Source: a virus (lineage: Duplodnaviria; Caudoviricetes). From it: a DNA stretch of 38,490 nt. Position 1 is the first letter of the stretch; every line of letters begins with the position of its first letter. Shown here one piece after another: positions 11,697 to 33,222 of the stretch. The notes below the pieces were generated by a model, which saw nothing but the letters and a program-made list of their open reading frames with translations, was not told the origin of the DNA and searched no databases. The stretch is from positions 1-38,490 of IMG/VR virus record IMGVR_UViG_3300017978_000280; one strand, 5' to 3'. The position numbers and the translations under genes were made by a program.

Positions 11697-12686
11697 ATGC
11701 CGACCCCAATGGAAACCTTGATGCAATCATTGGTCCCGAACCGCACTCCGCCGGGTGGCGTGGTACGTTCTGTCGGGGCTATGCCTGCTATCGCGCCACA
11801 AGCTGTTGCTCCGGTAGGGATTGCGCCTCCCGCCGCACCCGCAGCGCCGCAGCTTTCACCGACGGCAAAGTACATTGCGGATATGCAGGCTCTCATGAGC
11901 GGCGGTGTTGGCCCGCTATCGACTGGCGAAAAGATCAGCGCGCTTGGTCAAGTGCTTCAGGCCGCAGGTAGCCGTGGCGCTTCTGACCCGGCTGCTGTTC
12001 TTCAGAGCGTGCGTAAGCAGCAGATGGATAAACTGAACGCGCAGTATCAGATCGCCCAGTTGCAGCAGTCCCAGCAGCAGGCGGCGCAGCAGCGCGCCGC
12101 TATTGAGAAATATAAAGTTGCACTTGAGCCGGATCAGATTAACGCGCTTGAAGGTTTGCCGCTTGAAGAGCAGGCGAAGAAGGTTGCCGAGATTGCTTTC
12201 CGCCAAGATCAGGTCCGTGAAATTAAACGTGACAGTGATGGCAAGACGCGCTACATTTTTGTCAGTGGCAAGAGCAAAGAGGCGGACTTTGATCTTCCAA
12301 TCGGTTATGAGAAGATTGACACAGGCAACGGCTTTAAGTTTTATAATAAAGATAATCCGACTGAGTATCTTAAAGACGCATCAGGTAAGGAAGTGTTTGT
12401 TCCGCAGCAGATGACTGCGTATCAGCGCGAGAGTCTCGGCCTGCGCCGCCAAGAAATCGCAAGGGCAGATGCACGGGCACGAATGGGCGGTGTGGACTAT
12501 CTTCCCAAGCCGACCATTGGTATTATCGATGGCAAAGCAACTTATGTTCAGTGGGACAAAAAGAGGCAAAAATTAGTTCCGTTTAAGCAGCCGGGACTGA
12601 CACCGCCATCTAGAGGCGGCATGTCAGCTAATCAACTAGGGCCTGATGTCGAGGCACTTTTGGCTCAGGGACTTAACGTAGAATAA
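11697..12686 (+). CDS. putative DNA ejection protein
   Basis: 329 aa, Pro/Ala N-terminus and Gln coiled coil; between pilot and large ejection genes. Confidence 0.55.
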   Translation: MPTPMETLMQSLVPNRTPPGGVVRSVGAMPAIAPQAVAPVGIAPPAAPAAPQLSPTAKYIADMQALMSGGVGPLSTGEKISALGQVLQAAGSRGASDPAAVLQSVRKQQMDKLNAQYQIAQLQQSQQQAAQQRAAIEKYKVALEPDQINALEGLPLEEQAKKVAEIAFRQDQVREIKRDSDGKTRYIFVSGKSKEADFDLPIGYEKIDTGNGFKFYNKDNPTEYLKDASGKEVFVPQQMTAYQRESLGLRRQEIARADARARMGGVDYLPKPTIGIIDGKATYVQWDKKRQKLVPFKQPGLTPPSRGGMSANQLGPDVEALLAQGLNVE

Positions 12687-12695
12687 GGAGCCTTC

Positions 12696-16267: not shown

Positions 16268-16849
16268 ATGGAACAATGGAAGCTGCACCCAACGCTACCG
16301 GGCGTTTGGGTATCTACAATCGGAAATGTTAAAAGAGAAATAAATAAGTCGCACCCTGAGCGCGGTAAACCGTGGCATTATTTCAAGCCACATGTGGCCG
16401 TTGACAAAACAGGGTACGCAGTTTTGCGTGTATCTATTCGCAGAAAGAACCATACCGTGGCTCGGTTGGTCGCGCAAACTTTTCTCGGCCTAGAGCCAGA
16501 TCAAGTTGTTCGCCATAGAAACAACAACTCGCAAGACAATCGGGTGGCCAACCTAGACATTGGAAGCCAACGGGAAAACATAGCGGACAAAGCCGCACAC
16601 GGAACGTGGCAGGGTGGAGACAGGCATCCGTGTGCTAAGTATTCAGACGAACTAATTGCGGCAATACAGTCCGACCTTGAAGTGACTGAGAAGAAAAGAG
16701 GGGTGGCTAAATCTCTCGCGTTAAAGTATAATATCCCCGTGCACGTCATCCGTGACGTGTCCTATGGAAGAAGAAAAACTTTTTCCCAAAGATTAAAGGA
16801 AGCCAAGTGCGGATACTTGGATGCGACGTTGGCGCGTTCGGAGCAATAG
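16268..16849 (+). CDS. free-standing HNH endonuclease
   Basis: VARLVAQTFLG...VRHRNNNSQDNRVANL HNH motif; AGGAGG SD before ATG 16268. Confidence 0.85.
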   Translation: MEQWKLHPTLPGVWVSTIGNVKREINKSHPERGKPWHYFKPHVAVDKTGYAVLRVSIRRKNHTVARLVAQTFLGLEPDQVVRHRNNNSQDNRVANLDIGSQRENIADKAAHGTWQGGDRHPCAKYSDELIAAIQSDLEVTEKKRGVAKSLALKYNIPVHVIRDVSYGRRKTFSQRLKEAKCGYLDATLARSEQ

Positions 16850-17334
16850 CTATTCTAGATACGGATAGCCGAGAACTTGTCGTCATTGACATGCCTACAC
16901 TAAAGGTCAAGCGTGGGCCGCGTGTCGTCAATCAGGTTGACGCGCACATGCTGACTGATGCGCTCCGCCCGCATGTAGACAGCGATACCAAGGCCCTTAT
17001 CGAGAAGGTCCACGCCATGCCGGGCCAAGGTGTGTCCTCGATGTTCAGCTTCGGCAGAGCGGCGGGTATCGTCGAAGGCGTTCTTGCTGGCCTGTCTGTA
17101 TCTTTTGAGTTGATACCGCCTGCGACTTGGATTAAGTCTATGCGCACGTTCGGAGGGAAGGACGGCAGTCGTCAGCGGGCGCAAGAGTTGTTCCCGGATT
17201 ACGCCCATCTCTTCGCACGGAAAAAGGACGACGGCCGGGCCGAAGCTGCGCTTCTTGCTTGCTACGCCGCCGAGAGGGAAGACAATGAACCATCTATTCG
17301 ATTACCAAAAGGTCGGCGCAGACTTTCTCTGTGA
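16807..17334 (+). CDS. RuvC-like Holliday junction resolvase
   Basis: ILGCD.G..GAIA, IEKV, SMFSFG, P..W.K, DGRAEA motifs; GTG start with AAGGA SD. Confidence 0.85.
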   Translation: MRILGCDVGAFGAIAILDTDSRELVVIDMPTLKVKRGPRVVNQVDAHMLTDALRPHVDSDTKALIEKVHAMPGQGVSSMFSFGRAAGIVEGVLAGLSVSFELIPPATWIKSMRTFGGKDGSRQRAQELFPDYAHLFARKKDDGRAEAALLACYAAEREDNEPSIRLPKGRRRLSL

Positions 17335-20328: not shown

Positions 20329-22232
20329 TTCCGATACCTCTTTCCTTCTTTGCCCTCGGCGTTGATTGGGCAGCCTTGCGCCCATGCCGGAACTTGTGTC
20401 ATGATGTCAATCATTTCGTCAAGCGAACCAAAACCATCTGGCACTTCGCAAATGATTTCATCGTGAACGGACAGGATTACCGGGTAGCCTTTAATCTCTA
20501 ACGCCATCATGGCGGTGGCCATCATGTCACGGGCGGTCGCTTGCACCACGTTCTCCGTCAGCAGGCCACCCCAGATAATCTGAGACACCCACTGTCGCGT
20601 CACACTATTCAACGTATCGACTTGCGCTGTATCTCTCATCGCACCCCAAGGAGTTTCACGCTGAATGATGCGCGGATTGTGGTACGTAAGCGACCGCCCG
20701 CTAGGTAATGGAAGCCCGACGGTCTTAACCCTGCCTGCTTCCTTCACCATATCTACAAAGTCTTGCTCAACATCTCGCCAGTACTGCGCGATCCTGTGGT
20801 TCTTCTCACGGTAGACAGCCACGATGCGCTTAGCTTCGTCCTCGTCTACCTTGATGCCCATCGTGGCGCACTGCTCGGCGAAGCGTTTGCCCCCCATGCC
20901 GTAGCCGCAACCCAAGATTGCCATCTTACCAACCTGCCGCTGTCCGTCAGTGACGCTCTCCACGTCCACGTTGTAGATGGCCGATGCCATTTCTTTATAC
21001 ACGTCTCCCCCCTTTCGGAACGTCTCAACGAGATCGCTCTGCCCTGCTACCCACGCAAGAACGCGGGCCTCGATTGCCGAGTAGTCGGCAAACATTAGTC
21101 GATGGCCATCTTCGGCTATCAGCATCGAACGCAACAGGTCGGACGCCAGAACCGTTCCGGCCCCATGCTCCGACACATCCTTATCCGCTTTGAGTTTGGC
21201 AATGATCTCGTCCAACTCGTCTTGTTTCTTTTGCGGACGTGGGAAGTTCTGCGGCTGCACCAAGCGCCCAGACCACCGGCCCGTTGCCGCGCCGTGATAC
21301 ATGAGAAGGCCGCGCATACGGTCGTCAGCGTTGGCTGCGTTGACCATCGCGTCATACTTAGCGGTGCTAGACTTTGCGCCGTCTTGGCGTAGCTTCAGCA
21401 CTTGCTTGATGATGGGGTGCAGCCCGTCCATAGCAAGCATCCGCGTCACGGTCTGCTTGTCCACGGAGTTGACGTTTAACTCATAGCCACGAAGCCACGC
21501 AGTTAAGTCCATTGCGTTCGTCGCTGCTTTGACTTGACCGTTCGTAAGGCGCTTCATCTCTGCGTCAATGTTTTCCGACGCATCATTAGCAAGTTTGCTA
21601 ACTCGGTCGATCAGGTCGATGTCAACCTTAACACCACGGTCGTTGATGCGCTGGTCGAGTTGATAGAGACGACGTTCAGCGTCGGGCATTGCGTTCAGTG
21701 TCTCAGCTACCGACAGTTCCGTCCGCACGTCCTGTCGGCAATAAGCGACAAGCTGCTCAATCTTATCCTTCGTGTTCCACCAAGTGTAGCTGCCGTCGGC
21801 GTTCACCTTACGTGGCCGTGCCATCCGGAGCATAAGGGCCGCGCCGGTCTTATCCTTCTGTTCTTCGACACCGAGGACAGCAGCGGCTTGACCTAGCGCA
21901 CGAGGTAGTCCCATCGCGCTGGCCTGCGCCATCGTGCAGCGCCATTGATTGATGCGAGTGTCAGGCCACTGATAGCGGCCAACCATAATCTCGTTCCAGA
22001 TTGTGCGTTCGAAGTTGGCGTTCCATGCTGACAGCAATCCGCCCGCCCTGATCCAATCTTCCAGATAGGGGTCTACCGCATCGCCCGGCTGCCATACTAG
22101 CACGTCGTCAGACCACGGCGCTTTGTATGCCATGCACCAGATGTCAGTCGATTGGTCAGCGGCGTACTTATAGACGCCTGTCTTGCGAAGATCGACGGCG
22201 CTACGCGTCTCGAAGTCGATGCTTACTACCAT
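20325..22232 (-). CDS. polA: family A DNA polymerase with 3'-5' exonuclease (APSE-like)
   Basis: DFETRS (ExoI), ATGRWSG, DYSAIEARV (motif A), RQVGKMAILGCGYG (motif B), VHDE (motif C). Confidence 0.95.
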   Translation of the reverse strand: MVVSIDFETRSAVDLRKTGVYKYAADQSTDIWCMAYKAPWSDDVLVWQPGDAVDPYLEDWIRAGGLLSAWNANFERTIWNEIMVGRYQWPDTRINQWRCTMAQASAMGLPRALGQAAAVLGVEEQKDKTGAALMLRMARPRKVNADGSYTWWNTKDKIEQLVAYCRQDVRTELSVAETLNAMPDAERRLYQLDQRINDRGVKVDIDLIDRVSKLANDASENIDAEMKRLTNGQVKAATNAMDLTAWLRGYELNVNSVDKQTVTRMLAMDGLHPIIKQVLKLRQDGAKSSTAKYDAMVNAANADDRMRGLLMYHGAATGRWSGRLVQPQNFPRPQKKQDELDEIIAKLKADKDVSEHGAGTVLASDLLRSMLIAEDGHRLMFADYSAIEARVLAWVAGQSDLVETFRKGGDVYKEMASAIYNVDVESVTDGQRQVGKMAILGCGYGMGGKRFAEQCATMGIKVDEDEAKRIVAVYREKNHRIAQYWRDVEQDFVDMVKEAGRVKTVGLPLPSGRSLTYHNPRIIQRETPWGAMRDTAQVDTLNSVTRQWVSQIIWGGLLTENVVQATARDMMATAMMALEIKGYPVILSVHDEIICEVPDGFGSLDEMIDIMTQVPAWAQGCPINAEGKEGKRYRK

Positions 22233-22279
22233 GCTCTTTCCCTCTTTTTCGTCGGTGTCACGTTTGCTTTCCGTATAGT

Positions 22280-22344
22280 TGGCACAAACAGCATAGTGTC
22301 GTCAACAAAAAAAAGTTCTTGCGTTCGATATTGAAACTGTGCCA
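22280..22344. promoter_or_regulatory. divergent promoter pair for the two replication operons
   Basis: - strand TTGACG...TGTGCCA and + strand TTGCGT...TGTGCCA, back to back around an A8 tract. Confidence 0.55.
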
Positions 22345-22376
22345 CCCAAGAAGGGTAACAACAAATGAGGGAGTTT

Positions 22377-23147
22377 ATGTCTAACAGTTTTATGCCGTGG
22401 CGCGCCGAAGAGGACGCTACACTCACAGAACTTTACCATAAGAATCTGACATACGCGCAGATCGGGGAGGTGCTTGGCCGTTCTGCCGACGCCGTCGATA
22501 CTCGGCGTAGAAAGATAGGGCTGAAGCGGGAGTTCGTTTCCCATAAATCGCCACCGCCGGAAGACCTACGGGAATTGGCGCGCACTATGAACGTGTCGCA
22601 ACTCGTTAAACATTATGGCCGGATTAGGTCGGTGGTTGTTCGTTGGATGGACGAACTTAAACTTACGGAGATCGTTGTCAGTTCAAGCGGAAGGAAGCGG
22701 TCTGTTCCGGATAACTTCTGCACGATGGCCCCGACCATGACATGCGCTCAACTTATGCGTCTATACGGCAGCGACCGCAGGACGATTAAGGGTTGGCTTA
22801 AAGAGACGGGAACCGTCGCTGTATCAAAGACGGAACGATACGCCGAGGTAACTAAGTTCGTCCCAGCCGATACAAAAGAAGAGGAGACGGTCGCTCGGCG
22901 GGAGTTTAACGGCCACACGAAATTGATCGCGGCGGAGGCTGCGAACTTTCTGCGCCGCACGCACCCGTCGGTCCATCGTGCGGATATACGGATGTACGAG
23001 CAGTCGGCGCACACATGGGGCGACGTGAAGAACGTACCCTTCCGGGGCGTCAATCAGTATTTTGTTTCTGGGAAAGGCATCATGTGGATTGACGACCTCA
23101 TCGCCTATGCTCAGTCAAAAGGGTTTACAATCAAGGAGTTAATTTAA
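22377..23147 (+). CDS. multi-HTH DNA-binding protein with GcrA/Myb-like N-terminus
   Basis: W..EED..L.ELY......QI...LGRS..AV..R...IGL, then two further HTH-like repeats; GAGGGAG SD. Confidence 0.6.
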   Translation: MSNSFMPWRAEEDATLTELYHKNLTYAQIGEVLGRSADAVDTRRRKIGLKREFVSHKSPPPEDLRELARTMNVSQLVKHYGRIRSVVVRWMDELKLTEIVVSSSGRKRSVPDNFCTMAPTMTCAQLMRLYGSDRRTIKGWLKETGTVAVSKTERYAEVTKFVPADTKEEETVARREFNGHTKLIAAEAANFLRRTHPSVHRADIRMYEQSAHTWGDVKNVPFRGVNQYFVSGKGIMWIDDLIAYAQSKGFTIKELI

Positions 23148-23564: not shown

Positions 23565-23786
23565 ATGGACAAAGTAAGATGGACCGATGATGAACAAGAA
23601 GTGGAGTTTATTCCAGTATTCATCATCGGTTTTGAAGAAGAGTTTGAACGCGGCGTAATACTAACGACGCCTGCGTATACGGTATTAACCGACGCCGAAC
23701 CTGAGTTTGCGCTCTACGCCATTGACGCGGCGGTAGATATGCTGATGCAGAGACGGGACCAAATCGAAAAGAGGGAGTTGCACTGA
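23565..23786 (+). CDS. hypothetical acidic protein
   Basis: GAGGA SD; TGATG overlap with primase. Confidence 0.65.
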   Translation: MDKVRWTDDEQEVEFIPVFIIGFEEEFERGVILTTPAYTVLTDAEPEFALYAIDAAVDMLMQRRDQIEKRELH

Positions 23787-26553: not shown

Positions 26554-26577
26554 GGGGGCTTCGGCTCCCTTTTTTTT
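26552..26577 (+). terminator. rho-independent terminator
   Basis: aagggggc-ttcg-gctccctt followed by a T run. Confidence 0.85.
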
Positions 26578-26582
26578 GATTT

Positions 26583-26862
26583 GGGGACGGATACGAAAAA
26601 GTTGGGGACGCTTTGGGGACGCTTTGGGGACGGATAAATATGAGGACTTCTGCGGTCGGGGACGGAAGGGACGGATAATTCTGACATGATTGGCTCTTAC
26701 GACAGTAACAGTGTTACCCATGTACATTTTACAATGTTACTTACATAGGCCAACTAATGGTCGTTCAAACCCGTCCCGAGCGTCCCGAGCCGCCTAAGAG
26801 CTGGGTTTTATCCGTCCCCAAAGCGTCCCCGAAGTGTCCCCGATTTTCTGAAAGCGTCCCGA
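26583..26862. repeat. 280-bp imperfect palindrome of convergent GGGAC(G) iterons; putative replication origin
   Basis: Six GGGAC on the left, six GTCCC on the right; perfect 24-bp IR 26615-26638/26807-26830; AT-rich centre. Confidence 0.75.
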
Positions 26863-26876
26863 ACCGCAGTTTTCCG

Positions 26877-27618: not shown

Positions 27619-27707
27619 AGCCTATATGCCTCTATAAGCCCGTATAAAGCCCATAGAGAGGCATATAGGGCGATTGCTAGGTAACAGTCCCGGTTGTAGC
27701 TATGCAC
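27615..27707 (-). CDS. 30-aa hydrophobic peptide (not in ORF track)
   Basis: GTG start after GGAG; MHSYNRDCYLAIALYASLWALYGLIEAYRL; overlaps both neighbours. Confidence 0.5.
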   Translation of the reverse strand: MHSYNRDCYLAIALYASLWALYGLIEAYRL

Positions 27708-27879
27708 GCTCCAGACCCCTTAGAAACGTCTCTAAGAGGATAGCGACTGGAGCGGGCACTGAACGCCCGCCTTGCTCATAGTATCTTATCGACCTTTCGG
27801 ACAGCCCAATCTTGCGGGCGAGATGCCCCTGCGTCATGTTTAGCTTTTCGCGTGTTGCTTTAAATTCTTCGCTTGTCAT
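27700..27879 (-). CDS. XRE/Cro-family HTH protein, 59 aa (not in ORF track)
   Basis: MTSEEFKATREKLNMTQGHLARKIGLSERSIRYYEQGGRSVP, classic HTH_XRE; ATGA overlap. Confidence 0.85.
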   Translation of the reverse strand: MTSEEFKATREKLNMTQGHLARKIGLSERSIRYYEQGGRSVPAPVAILLETFLRGLERA

Positions 27880-28189: not shown

Positions 28190-28251
28190 TATAACTCTCC
28201 CCATTTATTAGCCATTGCCTCCGCAATGCCTTTGTATGTTGTGCTGCTCCT
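28189..28251 (-). pseudogene. relic 3' end of a phage DNA cytosine-methylase-like gene
   Basis: Reads RSSTTYKGIAEAMANKWGEL*, matching the recalled RSxTYxGIAxAMAxQWG family C-terminus; rest of gene absent. Confidence 0.55.
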
Positions 28252-29048: not shown

Positions 29049-29116
29049 AATCTTTTATTCCCTCTAATTGGCACTAGCGCCATCCTCGCGGCGGGTTTCC
29101 CCGCCGTCCGGTGGTG

Positions 29117-29761: not shown

Positions 29762-29875
29762 TTACTCTCCCTCTCTATCGTTATGGCTGGCAAACGACAC
29801 GCCAGCTAACATGCAAACAATCCATATCATCGCAAATGCGTTGAATGGGATATACTGTGATAAATCAAAAGCCAT
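29762..29875 (-). CDS. 37-aa single-TM peptide
   Basis: GAGGA SD; hydrophobic FAMIWIVCMLAGVSFA. Confidence 0.55.
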   Translation of the reverse strand: MAFDLSQYIPFNAFAMIWIVCMLAGVSFASHNDREGE

Positions 29876-30032: not shown

Positions 30033-30063
30033 TTGTTCGTCCCTCTTTGTTGATGACGCATTA

Positions 30064-30093
30064 ACGATAGGAACATCCGGCCGGTCTAGTCAA
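30064..30093 (-). promoter_or_regulatory. sigma70-like promoter of the leftward (early) operon
   Basis: TTGACT-18 nt-TATCGT on the - strand. Confidence 0.5.
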
Positions 30094-30309
30094 TCGACTC
30101 AATTGAAAACAATTGTCAACAATCGAATCACATTCGGATGTGATTGCCTTGCCTATATATTATAAAGCAATCGGAACATGGTTCCGCTTTGACATGGTGA
30201 AGAGACACCGCCGCGCTTCGATTCTTGTGCGCCTTCGAACCCATTTGGTCGCTCACTAATACACTGTTACACCCTGAAACCCGCAGGATTGCGTGCCTTT
30301 TCTCATATA

Positions 30310-30436
30310 GGGGGGCAGGGGCACTTTCAAAATACCCCCCCCCCGCCCCCGCCTTGCGCGGGGGGTACGTACGTATAACTAAACAGACATCGAGGTGTGC
30401 CCCCCACCCCCCGTACTCCTTTGTTTTTGATCCCCC
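30310..30436. other. G/C homopolymer-run element, candidate packaging/terminus site
   Basis: G6CAG4, C10GC5, G6, TACGTACGTA palindrome and C6AC6 in non-coding DNA upstream of recombinase-terL. Confidence 0.45.
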
Positions 30437-30463
30437 AGCCAAAAAAATTCTGTACTTTTTTGC

Positions 30464-30493
30464 TTGCCAAACTGTAACAATAAAGTGTAACAG
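30464..30493 (+). promoter_or_regulatory. putative promoter of recombinase-terL overlapped by TGTAACA direct repeats
   Basis: TTGCCA...TG-TAACAG preceded by A/T tracts; TGTAACA twice. Confidence 0.4.
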
Positions 30494-30523
30494 CGGTGCA
30501 CAACAAAAAACGGGAGAAATACG

Positions 30524-31204
30524 TTGGCAGTTTATGGATACACACGCGTCTCGACTGAGGACCAGATCGAGAACACATCGCTCGATGACCAAGCACGCCA
30601 AATCCAAGGCATCGCGCTCACACACAATATGGAACTAGACCATATCTACGAAGAGCGGGGCGTCTCCGGCGGTGTCCCACTGCTGCGCCGAGAAGAAGGC
30701 TGCAAGCTGGCGTTCCTCCGGCCGGGCGATACTGTAATCGTATCGAAGCTAGACCGTATGTTCCGTGACGCACGGGACGCACTAAACGTGATTGCCGACT
30801 GGGAGAGCGCCAACATCAACCTAATCATCAACGGCTATGGCAATGTGATGGACAAGGCCAACCCGAACGGACGCTTCATGCTAGAGATCATGGCCGTCTT
30901 CTCCGGAGAGGAGCGCCGCCGTATCAGAGAACGTGTCACCGCCGGTAAGAGGGCCAAGAAGTCACAAGGTGGATACGTCGGTGGCAAAGTGCCGTTCGGC
31001 TTTAAGAAGTCAGGCACAGGCCGCAAGGCCAAGCTGCACCCAGAGCCAAACGCGCAGGACGCGCTAATTACAATGAAAGCCGCACGCGTTAAAGGCCATA
31101 GCTACCGCGATATTGCCATTATAGTCGCAAAGCGTCATGGTATCACGGTAAGTCACCAAACAATCGCACGTGTAATCAGGGGAGATAAGAATGACGAAAT
31201 CTGA
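30524..31204 (+). CDS. serine site-specific recombinase (resolvase/invertase family)
   Basis: YGYTRVST catalytic Ser motif, E.GVSG, GDTVIVSKLDRMFR, ER..IRER, GG.VPFGF, C-terminal HTH; TTG start. Confidence 0.9.
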   Translation: MAVYGYTRVSTEDQIENTSLDDQARQIQGIALTHNMELDHIYEERGVSGGVPLLRREEGCKLAFLRPGDTVIVSKLDRMFRDARDALNVIADWESANINLIINGYGNVMDKANPNGRFMLEIMAVFSGEERRRIRERVTAGKRAKKSQGGYVGGKVPFGFKKSGTGRKAKLHPEPNAQDALITMKAARVKGHSYRDIAIIVAKRHGITVSHQTIARVIRGDKNDEI

Positions 31205-32600
31205 GCCAAACTTCTTTTTGGAGTTCCTGAAGAAGTACCGCGATGATCCCGTCGGGTTCGTGCGCGATATTCTAAGGACTAAACCAGACCCGTGGCAAAT
31301 CGAGTTTCTGAAGGCGATTAGTTCTGGCGAACGCCGTATCTCCGTCCGCTCAGGCCACGGTGTCGGTAAGTCTACAGCCGCAAGCTGGGCCATGCTGCAT
31401 TACTTCCTGACGCGCTATCCGGTGAAGGTGGTTGTGACTGCGCCGACATCCGCACAGTTGTTCGATGCGATGTTCGCGGAACTGAAGCGATGGGTGAATG
31501 AACTGCCCGAAGTGCTGAAGACTTTGATCGAAGTCAAGGCCGACCGTATTGAGTTGAAGGCCGCAGCCAGTGAAGCGTTTATCTCAGCCAGAACGAGCCG
31601 CGCTGAAACGCCGGAAGCCTTGCAGGGTATCCACGCCGACAACGTGCTGCTCGTCGCCGACGAAGCGTCCGGTATCCCGGAGAGTGTGTACGAAGCCGCG
31701 TCCGGTTCTATGTCGGGCCACAACGCGACGACGCTTCTTCTCGGAAACCCTACGCGAAACAGCGGGTTGTTCTACGATACGCACAACCGGTTGAAGGGGG
31801 AATGGAAAACCTTCCATGTCAGTTGTCTCGACAGCCCACGCGTATCCGATGCGTTCGTTCGAGAGATGCAGCTACGGTACGGCGAAGACAGCCCGGCGTA
31901 CCACGTGCGTGTCCTCGGTAACTTCCCGCCTCGTGAAGAAGATACGGTTATCCCTGTCGAGTTGATTGACAGCGCCATGAACCGCGAAATCAAGATCGCC
32001 AAGCAGACGAAGAGTGTCTGGGGCCTCGACGTTGCGCGTATGGGTTCCGATGCTTCCGCACTCGCCAAGCGGCGCGGCCCAGTTGTTGAAGAGATACAGA
32101 CTTGGAAAGGTCTGGACCTGATGCAGCTAACCGGCGCAGTCGTGGCCGAGTATGAGGCGCTTGTCCCTTCGGAGCAGCCAGTCGAGATATTGGTCGATAG
32201 CATCGGATTGGGGGCTGGCGTTCTTGACCGTCTGCGCGAACTGGGCCTACCTGCGCGTGGGATCAACGTCGCGGAAAGTCCTGCGATGAAAGGGACTTAC
32301 GCCAACCTACGCGCCGAATTGTGGTTCAAGTGTAAGGGGTGGCTGGCGAACCGTGACGTAAAGATACCGAAGGACGAACAGTTGTTCGCCGAGTTGGCGT
32401 CACCGCGTTACACCTTTACCTCGTCGGGTAAGATGCAGGTGGAGAGTAAGGAAAGCATGAAGAAGCGCGGGCTTCCTTCGCCAGATAAGGCGGACGCCCT
32501 CTGCCTGTGTCTGGCCACAGATATATCGACGATCATGCACGGATACTCGATGGCCAACAAGTCAGGGGCCTTAAAGCGGAACATCAAGGGTGTTGTTTGA
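31191..32600 (+). CDS. terL: terminase large subunit
   Basis: PDPWQ, Walker A SGHGVGKS, VADEA, GNP, nuclease GLDVA..G.D, SPD.ADA. Confidence 0.95.
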   Translation: MTKSEPNFFLEFLKKYRDDPVGFVRDILRTKPDPWQIEFLKAISSGERRISVRSGHGVGKSTAASWAMLHYFLTRYPVKVVVTAPTSAQLFDAMFAELKRWVNELPEVLKTLIEVKADRIELKAAASEAFISARTSRAETPEALQGIHADNVLLVADEASGIPESVYEAASGSMSGHNATTLLLGNPTRNSGLFYDTHNRLKGEWKTFHVSCLDSPRVSDAFVREMQLRYGEDSPAYHVRVLGNFPPREEDTVIPVELIDSAMNREIKIAKQTKSVWGLDVARMGSDASALAKRRGPVVEEIQTWKGLDLMQLTGAVVAEYEALVPSEQPVEILVDSIGLGAGVLDRLRELGLPARGINVAESPAMKGTYANLRAELWFKCKGWLANRDVKIPKDEQLFAELASPRYTFTSSGKMQVESKESMKKRGLPSPDKADALCLCLATDISTIMHGYSMANKSGALKRNIKGVV

Positions 32601-32624
32601 CATAAGCGATTGATGTGTTATATT
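32597..32624 (+). promoter_or_regulatory. sigma70-type promoter for the ncRNA
   Basis: TTGACA-16 nt-TATATT with extended -10 TG. Confidence 0.7.
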
Positions 32625-32630
32625 TCTTTT

Positions 32631-32751
32631 GCCCGGCAGGTTCCTCCTCTCCCTCTCCCTGCCGGGCGACTAAGGATGTGCGCGGCTAGGCCGGTAATAG
32701 CGACAAGACGATGTGGCTCCTTCGTCTAGAACGCCGCCATCCTACTTTTTT
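32631..32751 (+). ncRNA. candidate sRNA: anti-SD (cuckoo-like) hairpin plus second structured domain and U tract
   Basis: Perfect 10-bp stem gcccggcagg/cctgccgggc with loop UUCCUCCUCUCCCUCUC; aggatg/catcct closing stem followed by T6; no credible + strand ORF. Confidence 0.7.
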
Positions 32752-32799
32752 GCTTTTCTGTAAATTATAGGTTATAGGCCCGTAACAGGGAGCGTATCC

Positions 32800-33222
32800 G
32801 TGGAAACAAAGACTTGTCCGAAATGTGGCGAAGAGAAGCCGACTGACAACTTCCACGCCCAAAGGCGTACATGTAAGAAGTGTATGCGTGCGTACCAACA
32901 AGCCTTCGCCGCCGCCCGCCCGCATTACCACCGCAACCGCAATCTCCTGCGCAGATACGGTATTAGTAACGATGAGTACCAAACAATCGTCGCCAATCAG
33001 AATTTTGCTTGCCCTATTTGCAAGGTAGAAATATCTGATACATTAGCGTATAGAGATAAACGATCAGTTGTCGTAGACCATAACCATGAGACGGGGGATG
33101 TTCGCGGCATACTATGTTCGGGGTGTAATTTAGTTCTTGGCCACGCGAGAGAGAGTACAGAAGTTCTTTACCGGGCCATTGTGTATTTGAGTGAACGCGG
33201 CGCATATACGCCAAAAAAGTAG
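32800..33222 (+). CDS. endonuclease VII-domain protein with N-terminal zinc ribbon
   Basis: KTCPKCGEEK...CKKC; CPIC...VDHNH.TG.VRGILC..CN..LG; GTG start after AGGGAG. Confidence 0.85.
   Translation: METKTCPKCGEEKPTDNFHAQRRTCKKCMRAYQQAFAAARPHYHRNRNLLRRYGISNDEYQTIVANQNFACPICKVEISDTLAYRDKRSVVVDHNHETGDVRGILCSGCNLVLGHARESTEVLYRAIVYLSERGAYTPKK

Follow-up and report, generated by a model that had tools for sequence, protein, structure and literature searches.

A predicted small RNA behind terL whose loops change together with the Shine-Dalgarno sites of non-structural genes in a family of uncultured phages

Introduction

Directly behind the large terminase gene (terL) of a phage genome, IMG/VR record IMGVR_UViG_3300017978_000280, a promoter of near-consensus form points into a hairpin with a C/U loop, and the question raised by this locus is what such an element could be directed at. 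The record is a complete virus record of 38,490 bp, which was analysed at its full length and is called the window below, and it represents a podovirus-like phage of an uncultured, freshwater-type group. An original prediction, made on the window alone, held that the element encodes a trans-acting RNA aimed at the Shine-Dalgarno (SD) sequences of the early and replication genes of the phage itself. Comparison with relatives lends this strong support, through conservation of the RNA, covariation of its stem and a joint change of loops and SDs that is confined to non-structural genes, and we estimate at roughly 0.9 the probability that the locus is an RNA gene whose product pairs with ribosome-binding sites (RBSs) of non-structural genes. 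What is said below of the production of the RNA and of timing we infer, and repression rather than activation is taken by analogy from SD-occluding sRNAs.

Organisation and conservation of the RNA gene

The predicted transcript of about 121 nt begins near 32631 and ends in a U tract. The parts of the gene are:

32597-32624, + strand: sigma-70-type promoter, TTGACA-16-TG/TATATT, with a -35 box that overlaps the terL stop codon
32629-32669, + strand: hairpin P1, 10-12 bp, from fold and covariation
32641-32657, + strand: loop 1, the putative targeting seed, with the core CUCUCCCUC at 32647-32655 and a variable 5' half
32674-32742, + strand: domain 2, a three-way junction, with P2 as closing and terminator stem, P3 at 32683-32693, and P4
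32746-32751, + strand: U tract, end of the predicted transcript, the U run after P2 being conserved in the alignment

The promoter, with its TG extension, matches the sigma-70 consensus at 11/12 positions and is the best such site in a genome-wide scan, in agreement with the near-consensus TTGACA-16-TATATT promoter first described. P1 holds a perfect 10-bp stem (32631-32640 with 32658-32667) around a 17-nt loop, UUCCUCCUCUCCCUCUC. The 'second fold' with a U tract that had been described behind it was right as to the U tract, while the fold itself is rather a three-way junction closed by the terminator stem; a simple terminator scan misses this terminator because its stem encloses the junction. 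The junction sequence RUAAUA (32694-32699) is invariant in clade A, the lineage with this form of the RNA, and P4 is an optional insert that often displays a second CUCC loop (32713-32722) and is reduced to 3 bp plus AAA in L012, L013 and L020. Since the pairs of domain 2 are mostly invariant, covariation contributes less to the case for its fold than do the consistency of its pairing and the insertions that it tolerates. The RNA segment folds with z = -4.47, none of 200 shuffles being equally stable, and no shared ORF was found among the 7 RNAs checked. With its own promoter and terminator and no conserved ORF, the gene has the build of the class of trans-acting, SD-occluding small RNAs (sRNAs).

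Among the 80 nearest terL loci (90-100% identity), the promoter-hairpin-terminator unit stands directly after the terL stop in 73; six of the other seven have a different C/U-loop RNA and in one the contig ends early. The -35 box occurs in 62/62 distinct clade-A copies, a figure to which the search pattern contributes by having required it; the spacer varies, and the -10 boxes are of TATATT, TATAAT and TATAAA types. Pairs 1-8 are intact in all 34 distinct P1 hairpins, with double changes, and the G-U pairs fall on the + strand, which identifies it as the folding strand. When the terL-downstream regions of relatives were aligned, as the original prediction had proposed, P1 proved to covary: in a 30-row alignment, double changes are found at 5 of 6 counted P1 pairs and 0/500 shuffles reach the score, a comparison that kinship inflates. 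The loop core CUCUCCCUC is present throughout the clade-A copies listed, the 5' half of the loop drifting to U-rich.

A blastn search with the RNA against 50,697 GenBank phages gave no match at E up to 1, and in a scan of viral contigs with the domain 2 pattern the full-RNA copies among the matches listed all lie after a clade-A terL, the others being chance. Judged by eye, 21/21 relatives with TerL identities of 53-67% lack such an RNA after terL, as do phiM5 and MW202879. As a conserved structure, the element is thus a real, uncatalogued family of putative phage sRNAs.

Three further features of these loci may be recorded. In L326-L340, L344 and L351 (TerL 62-65%) a long hairpin stands after terL instead, with a 3' arm that extends into the GGAGG of the following gene, a possible case of translational control in cis. 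In L324 (1147-1350) P1 is directly followed by endonuclease VII coding sequence and domain 2 is missing, through natural deletion or an assembly chimera. The invariant junction (32694-32702) is limited to clade A and may be a protein site or a stabiliser; it has 8 nt in common with the 530 loop of 16S rRNA, which chance could explain, and within the phage no trans target was found for it beyond 7-nt chance matches.

Target sites in the window

The stem, its loop, an 11-nt loop complement and seven complements of 7-8 nt all lie where they had first been placed. Here and throughout, the classes 'early', 'replication' and 'structural' were assigned from gene function and position alone. The sites, together with a co-varying resolvase site, are:

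29765-29775, - strand: RBS of early ORF 29759-29490, 11-nt match, -20.5 kcal/mol, rank 1/52
30040-30046, - strand: RBS of the first early-cassette gene (30032-29880), loop complement
29059-29065, - strand: RBS of early ORF 29048-28782 (DUF7249), loop complement
28195-28202, - strand: RBS of early ORF 28189-28052, loop complement
23770-23777, + strand: RBS of primase/helicase (start 23786), loop complement
22367-22373, + strand: RBS of a D5-like helix-turn-helix (HTH) regulator (22377), first gene of the primase operon, loop complement
22239-22245, - strand: RBS of polA (22232), first gene of its operon, loop complement
17272-17279, + strand: RBS of the SNF2-type helicase (17285), loop complement
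30510-30516 (approximate), + strand: resolvase RBS (GGGAGA; gene 30524-31204), paired over 6 bp in the window and, in sister lineages, co-varying with the loops

The noted complements are all 5-11 nt upstream of a start codon, and 8 of the 23 perfect loop matches of at least 7 nt outside the RNA are at start codons. Pairing was scored with an accessibility-corrected hybrid model over the 52 start regions of the window. Early or replication genes take the eight best places and non-structural genes the first 12 of the 52, and the mean hybrid energy is -6.4 kcal/mol for 24 early and replication starts and -2.1 for 24 structural starts (p = 0.001). Weaker pairings that had been overlooked are found at the starts of terL, resolvase and endonuclease VII. 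The best structural-gene site is the RBS of an internal virion protein (AGGAGCC; 12683-12690, + strand), which pairs 7 bp with the second loop (32714-32720) at -6.8 kcal/mol; this second loop varies in relatives.

Loops and Shine-Dalgarno sites change together between lineages

In sister lineages with TerL identities of 86-91%, the position behind terL is taken by RNAs of a different architecture, whose C/U loops differ as well. The clade B RNA has three hairpins with unlike C/U loops, while in that of clade C the first hairpin is short and there is a single long C/U loop; each ends in a GC-rich, terminator-like stem, and the three-way junction is absent from clades B-D. Starts of orthologous genes and of early-cassette ORFs were called in 57 records by homology and the 16S tail only, and 49 of these, grouped into 11 RNA types, entered a matrix of pairing energies (left out as RNA-type duplicates or truncated: G016, G022, L019, L033, L036, L043, L090 and L091).

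Changes in the loops are accompanied by changes in the SDs of helicase, exonuclease, polA, primase, resolvase and early-cassette genes, while those of the structural genes remain alike across clades. In G004, for example, the loop UUCCUUCCCUUUCC has GAAAGGGA(AG) as its counterpart at helicase, at polA, at resolvase and at early genes; at primase and exonuclease the loop CUCCAG of G003 faces CUGGAG and CUCCAA of G004 faces UUGGAG; CCUCGCUC of G001 is matched by GAGCGAGG at the exonuclease, and CGCACUCC of G023 by GGAGUGCG at the resolvase and first early gene. The C2 group of clade C pairs UCUCCUC with GAGGAGA at polA and resolvase, and within clade A the lengthened CU loop of G029 is matched by GGAGAGAGA at the helicase. 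In G015 and G029, where an inserted methyltransferase gene precedes polA, the motif remains with the first cistron. Such complementarity of the seed to the target RBSs, with compensatory change, is also a mark of trans-acting SD-occluding sRNAs.

The assignment of RNAs to SDs was put to an exact permutation test on the double-centred matrix. For six lineages the true assignment ranks 1/720 with five core genes, 1/720 with the early cassette and 384/720 with the structural genes; for the core genes of eight lineages it ranks 3/40320, and for the four deep lineages 1/24, which is the floor of the test. These values overstate independence because the lineages are related, B1-B3 and C1-C2 being sister groups, a first point to be set against the reading. 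The loop/SD co-evolution for which a test had first been proposed is seen in replication and early genes, where the cognate assignment is the best of 720. Perfect cognate matches of at least 7 nt occur at 46/85 core RBSs (14% with RNAs of other clades) and at 3/271 structural RBSs (2%, again with RNAs of other clades), and in 19 genomes such matches to the genome's own loops are found at 83/282 non-structural versus 2/195 structural starts. GAGGGA occurs at 37/194 non-structural RBSs of clade A versus 1/127 in clades B-D, and at 2/119 structural RBSs of clade A. At sites held out and taken from a later metagenome scan, the cognate RNA beats the mean of the other types in 9/9. The comparative evidence for an apparent SD regulon that co-evolves with its RNA is strong.

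Might the RNA be aimed mainly at the host, the matches to phage SDs arising since both track host SD usage? C/U loops are able to pair with many GGAG-type host SDs, as are the loops of cuckoo and RNAIII type (PMC4615179). Such an RNA should, however, avoid the phage's own replication genes, and the constancy of structural-gene SDs between lineages speaks against it, as do matched bases that lie outside the pairing of the 16S tail with SDs (GAGCGAGG and GGAGUGCG are examples). A role against host AGGAGG sites had been suggested for the UUCCUCCU half of the loop; this half is kept in 5/62 distinct RNAs, and a conserved role of this kind is not supported. We regard host shut-off as an improbable main function, while incidental repression of host mRNAs is likely.

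Several further observations weigh against an RNA that reads these sites. Within the window, C/U-shuffled loops of the same composition also reach 8 early sites in 98/2000 cases and the early-minus-late difference in 68/2000, most pairings are just 6-8 bp, and early starts pair better than late ones with the 16S tail too (mean -7.8 vs -6.1, p = 0.006). Given the shuffled-loop control and this 16S-tail bias, the single genome is suggestive rather than conclusive. A cognate match of at least 7 nt is found at only 66/275 (24%) early-cassette RBSs, as against 13% with the RNAs of other clades; three of the nine held-out sites are from clade A, and at some the best other RNA ties with or beats the cognate one. 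Exonuclease and SSB of clade A are unmatched by the RNA, the resolvase site of G001/L078 reaches just -1.5 and the sites of G003 are weak (-5.5). The codes also cross-react, the G004 RNA binding clade-A1 core sites at -10.2, equal to the cognate RNA, and the script-called starts include errors (polA in G003, G015 and G029). Lastly, the early cassette of G013 (L244), with GAAAGGGAAAG SDs, suits the G004 RNA better than its own clade-A RNA, a mismatch that suggests exchange of cassettes between lineages.

The borderline statistics of the single genome would also suit chance matches, or a protein that reads the GAGGGA-type motif in the manner of RegA or of a stoperator-binding repressor, with the element as decoy or operator, and the minus strand of the element would show the motif itself. 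The promoter, U tract and G-U pairs nevertheless all indicate the + strand, covariation of the stem is not expected of a DNA operator, and chance is excluded by the cross-lineage tests, all of which makes this the least probable of the explanations considered.

The fixed neighbourhood of the element suggests another alternative, a role in cis only. The features concerned are:

31191-32600, + strand: terL, fixed upstream neighbour; its RBS (31179-31185) pairs 7 bp with one G-U
32800-33222, + strand: endonuclease VII gene, downstream; its RBS pairs 6 bp
32750-32778, + strand: separate predicted promoter of the endonuclease VII gene, TTGCTT-17-TATAGG, with similar boxes across clade A

Lying at the end of terL and able to pair over 6-7 nt with the endonuclease RBS, the element could be the terminator of a resolvase-terL transcript combined with a leader that dampens endonuclease VII. 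The nuclease nonetheless has its own predicted promoter, lineage D lacks the endonuclease VII gene and keeps the RNA, and the co-change of RBSs 2-15 kb away would be left unexplained; we give this account very little credence.

A proposed mode of action

SD-occluding sRNAs block the 30S subunit. In the proposed mechanism, the sRNA would pair in trans, by its exposed pyrimidine loops, with the SDs of replication, resolvase and early genes; pairing over the SD would exclude the 30S subunit, so that translation of non-structural genes would be blocked and structural genes spared. A precedent for SD occlusion by sRNAs is described in PMC4615179. That pairing represses translation is, on this analysis, very probable. 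The opposite, in which pairing would help the leaders by stabilising the mRNA or by bringing a factor through the three-way junction, draws on the early-type promoter, by which RNA and targets would coexist, and on the invariant junction of domain 2. Activation is nevertheless hard to reconcile with pairing that covers the SD itself and with target SDs that already pair well with the 16S tail; the junction, moreover, is absent from clades B-D. We accord it a slim chance.

If the RNA represses, when would it do so? A delayed negative feedback would bring the replication programme to an end in the course of the lytic cycle: the host polymerase would make the RNA and the early mRNAs from the start, and the stable RNA would accumulate until it outweighs the early mRNAs. 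Against this stands the promoter, which looks constitutive, so that the delay is an assumption. With a host-driven promoter of this kind, the delay would come from accumulation of the stable RNA, or else this genome region would enter the cell late. The terminus of phiM5 is just upstream of terL, and in the family contig ends cluster there, 36/87 upstream ends lying within 1.5 kb as against 17/86 downstream ends; with such a terminus, one may speculate, the RNA gene would be at one end of the virion DNA and the early cassette at the other.

The clean early-to-late switch first envisaged appears too simple. The promoter is the most consensus-like sigma-70 site of the genome, and pairing extends to the starts of resolvase, terL and endonuclease VII, those of terL and resolvase being a misfit to a pure early shut-off. 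Because of these weak pairings, the pattern suggests an RNA that caps the output of catalytic, low-copy proteins generally and not of early genes alone.

The match of the RNA to its own genome fits either lytic feedback or homoimmunity. Under the latter, the RNA would keep a plasmid-like or carrier-state genome quiet and block superinfecting kin, as C4 does for phages P1 and P7, and the loop/SD lineages would be immunity groups. A strong host-type promoter that needs no phage protein would suit this, as would a loop/SD code that has diverged fast among lineages still 86-91% identical in TerL and the presence of a resolvase and a 59-aa XRE HTH protein in a genome where, as first noted, no CI repressor is found. 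However, no integrase, partition gene or CI-type repressor is present among the window genes and 88 further ORFs (at least 90 aa) from 7 relatives, nor is an antirepressor among the window genes; no relative with TerL above 86% lies on a contig longer than 38.9 kb, and among these relatives no host-flanked contig or prophage was found. A plasmid state would need the resolvase, which is one of the targets, and the codes cross-react between lineages. RNA-based immunity, which the original prediction had offered as one possibility, is thus not favoured and we consider it unlikely; with no integrase or CI, no relative on a longer contig, a targeted resolvase and codes that are not orthogonal, lytic feedback is the role towards which we lean, with some hesitation.

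Relation to known RNAs

An Rfam search of the window gave nothing at the element and no match to the C4 model at E up to 10. The original prediction had likened the element to the cuckoo RNAs, an identity that fails, since there is no Rfam match in the window and no CCUCCUCCC in the loop. The best cuckoo score (ar14, RF02344) is 25.2 bits against a cut-off of 58.8 and was seen in L250 only (1/10 loci scanned); the 2-4 adjacent similar hairpins of the family are not found either, clade A having one hairpin and a three-way junction and clade B three hairpins with unlike loops. MmgR/suhB (RF00519) was likewise rejected, with no match at the element and 22.2 bits against 41 in L250, and a weak suhB match at 22300-22363 falls in the divergent promoter region of the polA and primase operons. 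Membership of C4 was set aside, no antirepressor, CI or integrase being found (relatives' ORFs of at least 90 aa).

Related phage regulatory RNAs include the CI RNA of phage P4. C4 of phages P1 and P7 resembles the window RNA as a structured phage RNA that acts in trans, by its loops, on mRNA of its own phage. Its b' loop partly occludes an RBS and changes in its loops set specificity; it is processed by RNase P and serves one antirepressor operon of a temperate phage, with two loops that act on paired sites (PMC5320573). Unlike C4, the window RNA is a stand-alone gene with 6-10 dispersed RBS targets in several operons, in a phage without signs of lysogeny. The cuckoo RNAs (RSs0680/CcsR, ar14) share modular hairpins, variable stems and anti-SD-like loops, and in clade B three hairpins stand in a row. 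Their loops are all CCUCCUCCC and invariant, in chromosomal or plasmid RNAs of Alphaproteobacteria (PMC4615179), whereas those of the phage RNAs differ within one RNA and between lineages, following the phage RBSs.

In Cluster K mycobacteriophages, the Start-Associated Sequence (SAS) is a near-invariant 13-bp repeat that contains an SD, and its describers did not decide whether its reader is a phage or host RNA or a protein (PMC3203893). It shares with the present motif the restriction to non-structural gene starts, but the motif here is of 6-11 nt, varies between lineages and is accompanied by a matching RNA in the genome that carries it. The Vibrio cholerae satellite PLE encodes SviR, which represses genes of the helper phage (10.1101/2022.04.08.487710) and is comparable in that an sRNA from a viral element acts in trans on many phage mRNAs and reduces their translation; unlike this satellite-encoded RNA, the window RNA matches replication genes of its own genome. 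The PAK_P3 RNAs sRNA1 and sRNA2 are of similar size, about 100 nt, and come from a virulent phage in which they are abundant late; the accessible portion of PMC4933390 reports no SD regulon for them, and this likeness is one of description only.

The phage sRNAs described so far have one phage target (sar, OOP, aQ, C4, 24B_1; PMC12197685; PMC5320573), regulate host genes, as PreS and DicF do, or in the case of SviR target a helper phage (PMC12197685; SviR preprint). As far as the consulted part of a 2025 review extends, single-target, host-target and exclusion RNAs are covered and no comparable regulon of a phage's own genes is mentioned (PMC12197685). In the literature searched, which did not take in subscription papers or the supplements of motif surveys, we found neither this RNA nor any phage sRNA that co-evolves with an SD regulon, nor loop/target co-evolution across dispersed operons. 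Control of all replication and early genes by one RNA, by way of SD variants and under a code rewritten between lineages, would be a different way of ordering a phage life cycle and an unusually clear natural case of sRNA/target co-evolution over many targets at once. The known cognate and non-cognate pairs yield exact, testable predictions, and such an RNA is a candidate type of reader for orphan start motifs such as SAS. Tentatively, one may envisage a protein-free master switch, in which one sRNA and a co-evolving, lineage-specific SD 'barcode' on all non-structural operons would set the time at which replication ends and might also keep out close kin; the SAS of Cluster K and other orphan start motifs would then be instances of one widespread, undescribed principle.

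Genome context and further observations

The window has a structural and lysis side (portal, scaffold, capsid, tube and ejection genes with lysis genes) and a replication side (RuvC, helicase, SSB, exonuclease, polA and primase), and also encodes terS, a 226-aa resolvase, terL and a cassette of small leftward early-type ORFs. Its gene order is similar to that of Sinorhizobium phage phiM5, and searches of cultured phages by terL or primase gave no close relative. The shapes of its promoters resemble the alphaproteobacterial type. An Arenimonas metagenome-assembled genome with a 17-kb contig (98% TerL) was rejected as host evidence, only phage genes being found in the 12 kb examined, and a GcrA match of an HTH protein fell under the cut-off.

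An HNH gene is inserted ahead of RuvC (16785-16807), and RuvC of relatives appears leaderless, with a TAxxxT box about 8 nt 5' of the ATG and without an SD. The 59-aa XRE/Cro-like HTH protein (27700-27879, - strand) ends the early cassette and is kept across clades, and it may act alongside the RNA control at the level of transcription. A cluster of short GGGACG/CGTCCC repeats at 26570-26870, with the DUF3310 gene on one side and terS on the other, is a candidate replication origin. The divergent polA and primase promoters (22232-22377) and the early-cassette promoter (30040-30095) have a common TTG(A/C)C-N13-14-TGT(G/T)CC shape in clades A-C, presumably either the alphaproteobacterial sigma-70 type without its last -10 T or a phage-activated class. 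The non-coding stretch between the early cassette and the resolvase (30100-30520) carries conserved C-run and G-run blocks and is a candidate genome terminus, packaging or res site, or assembly break.

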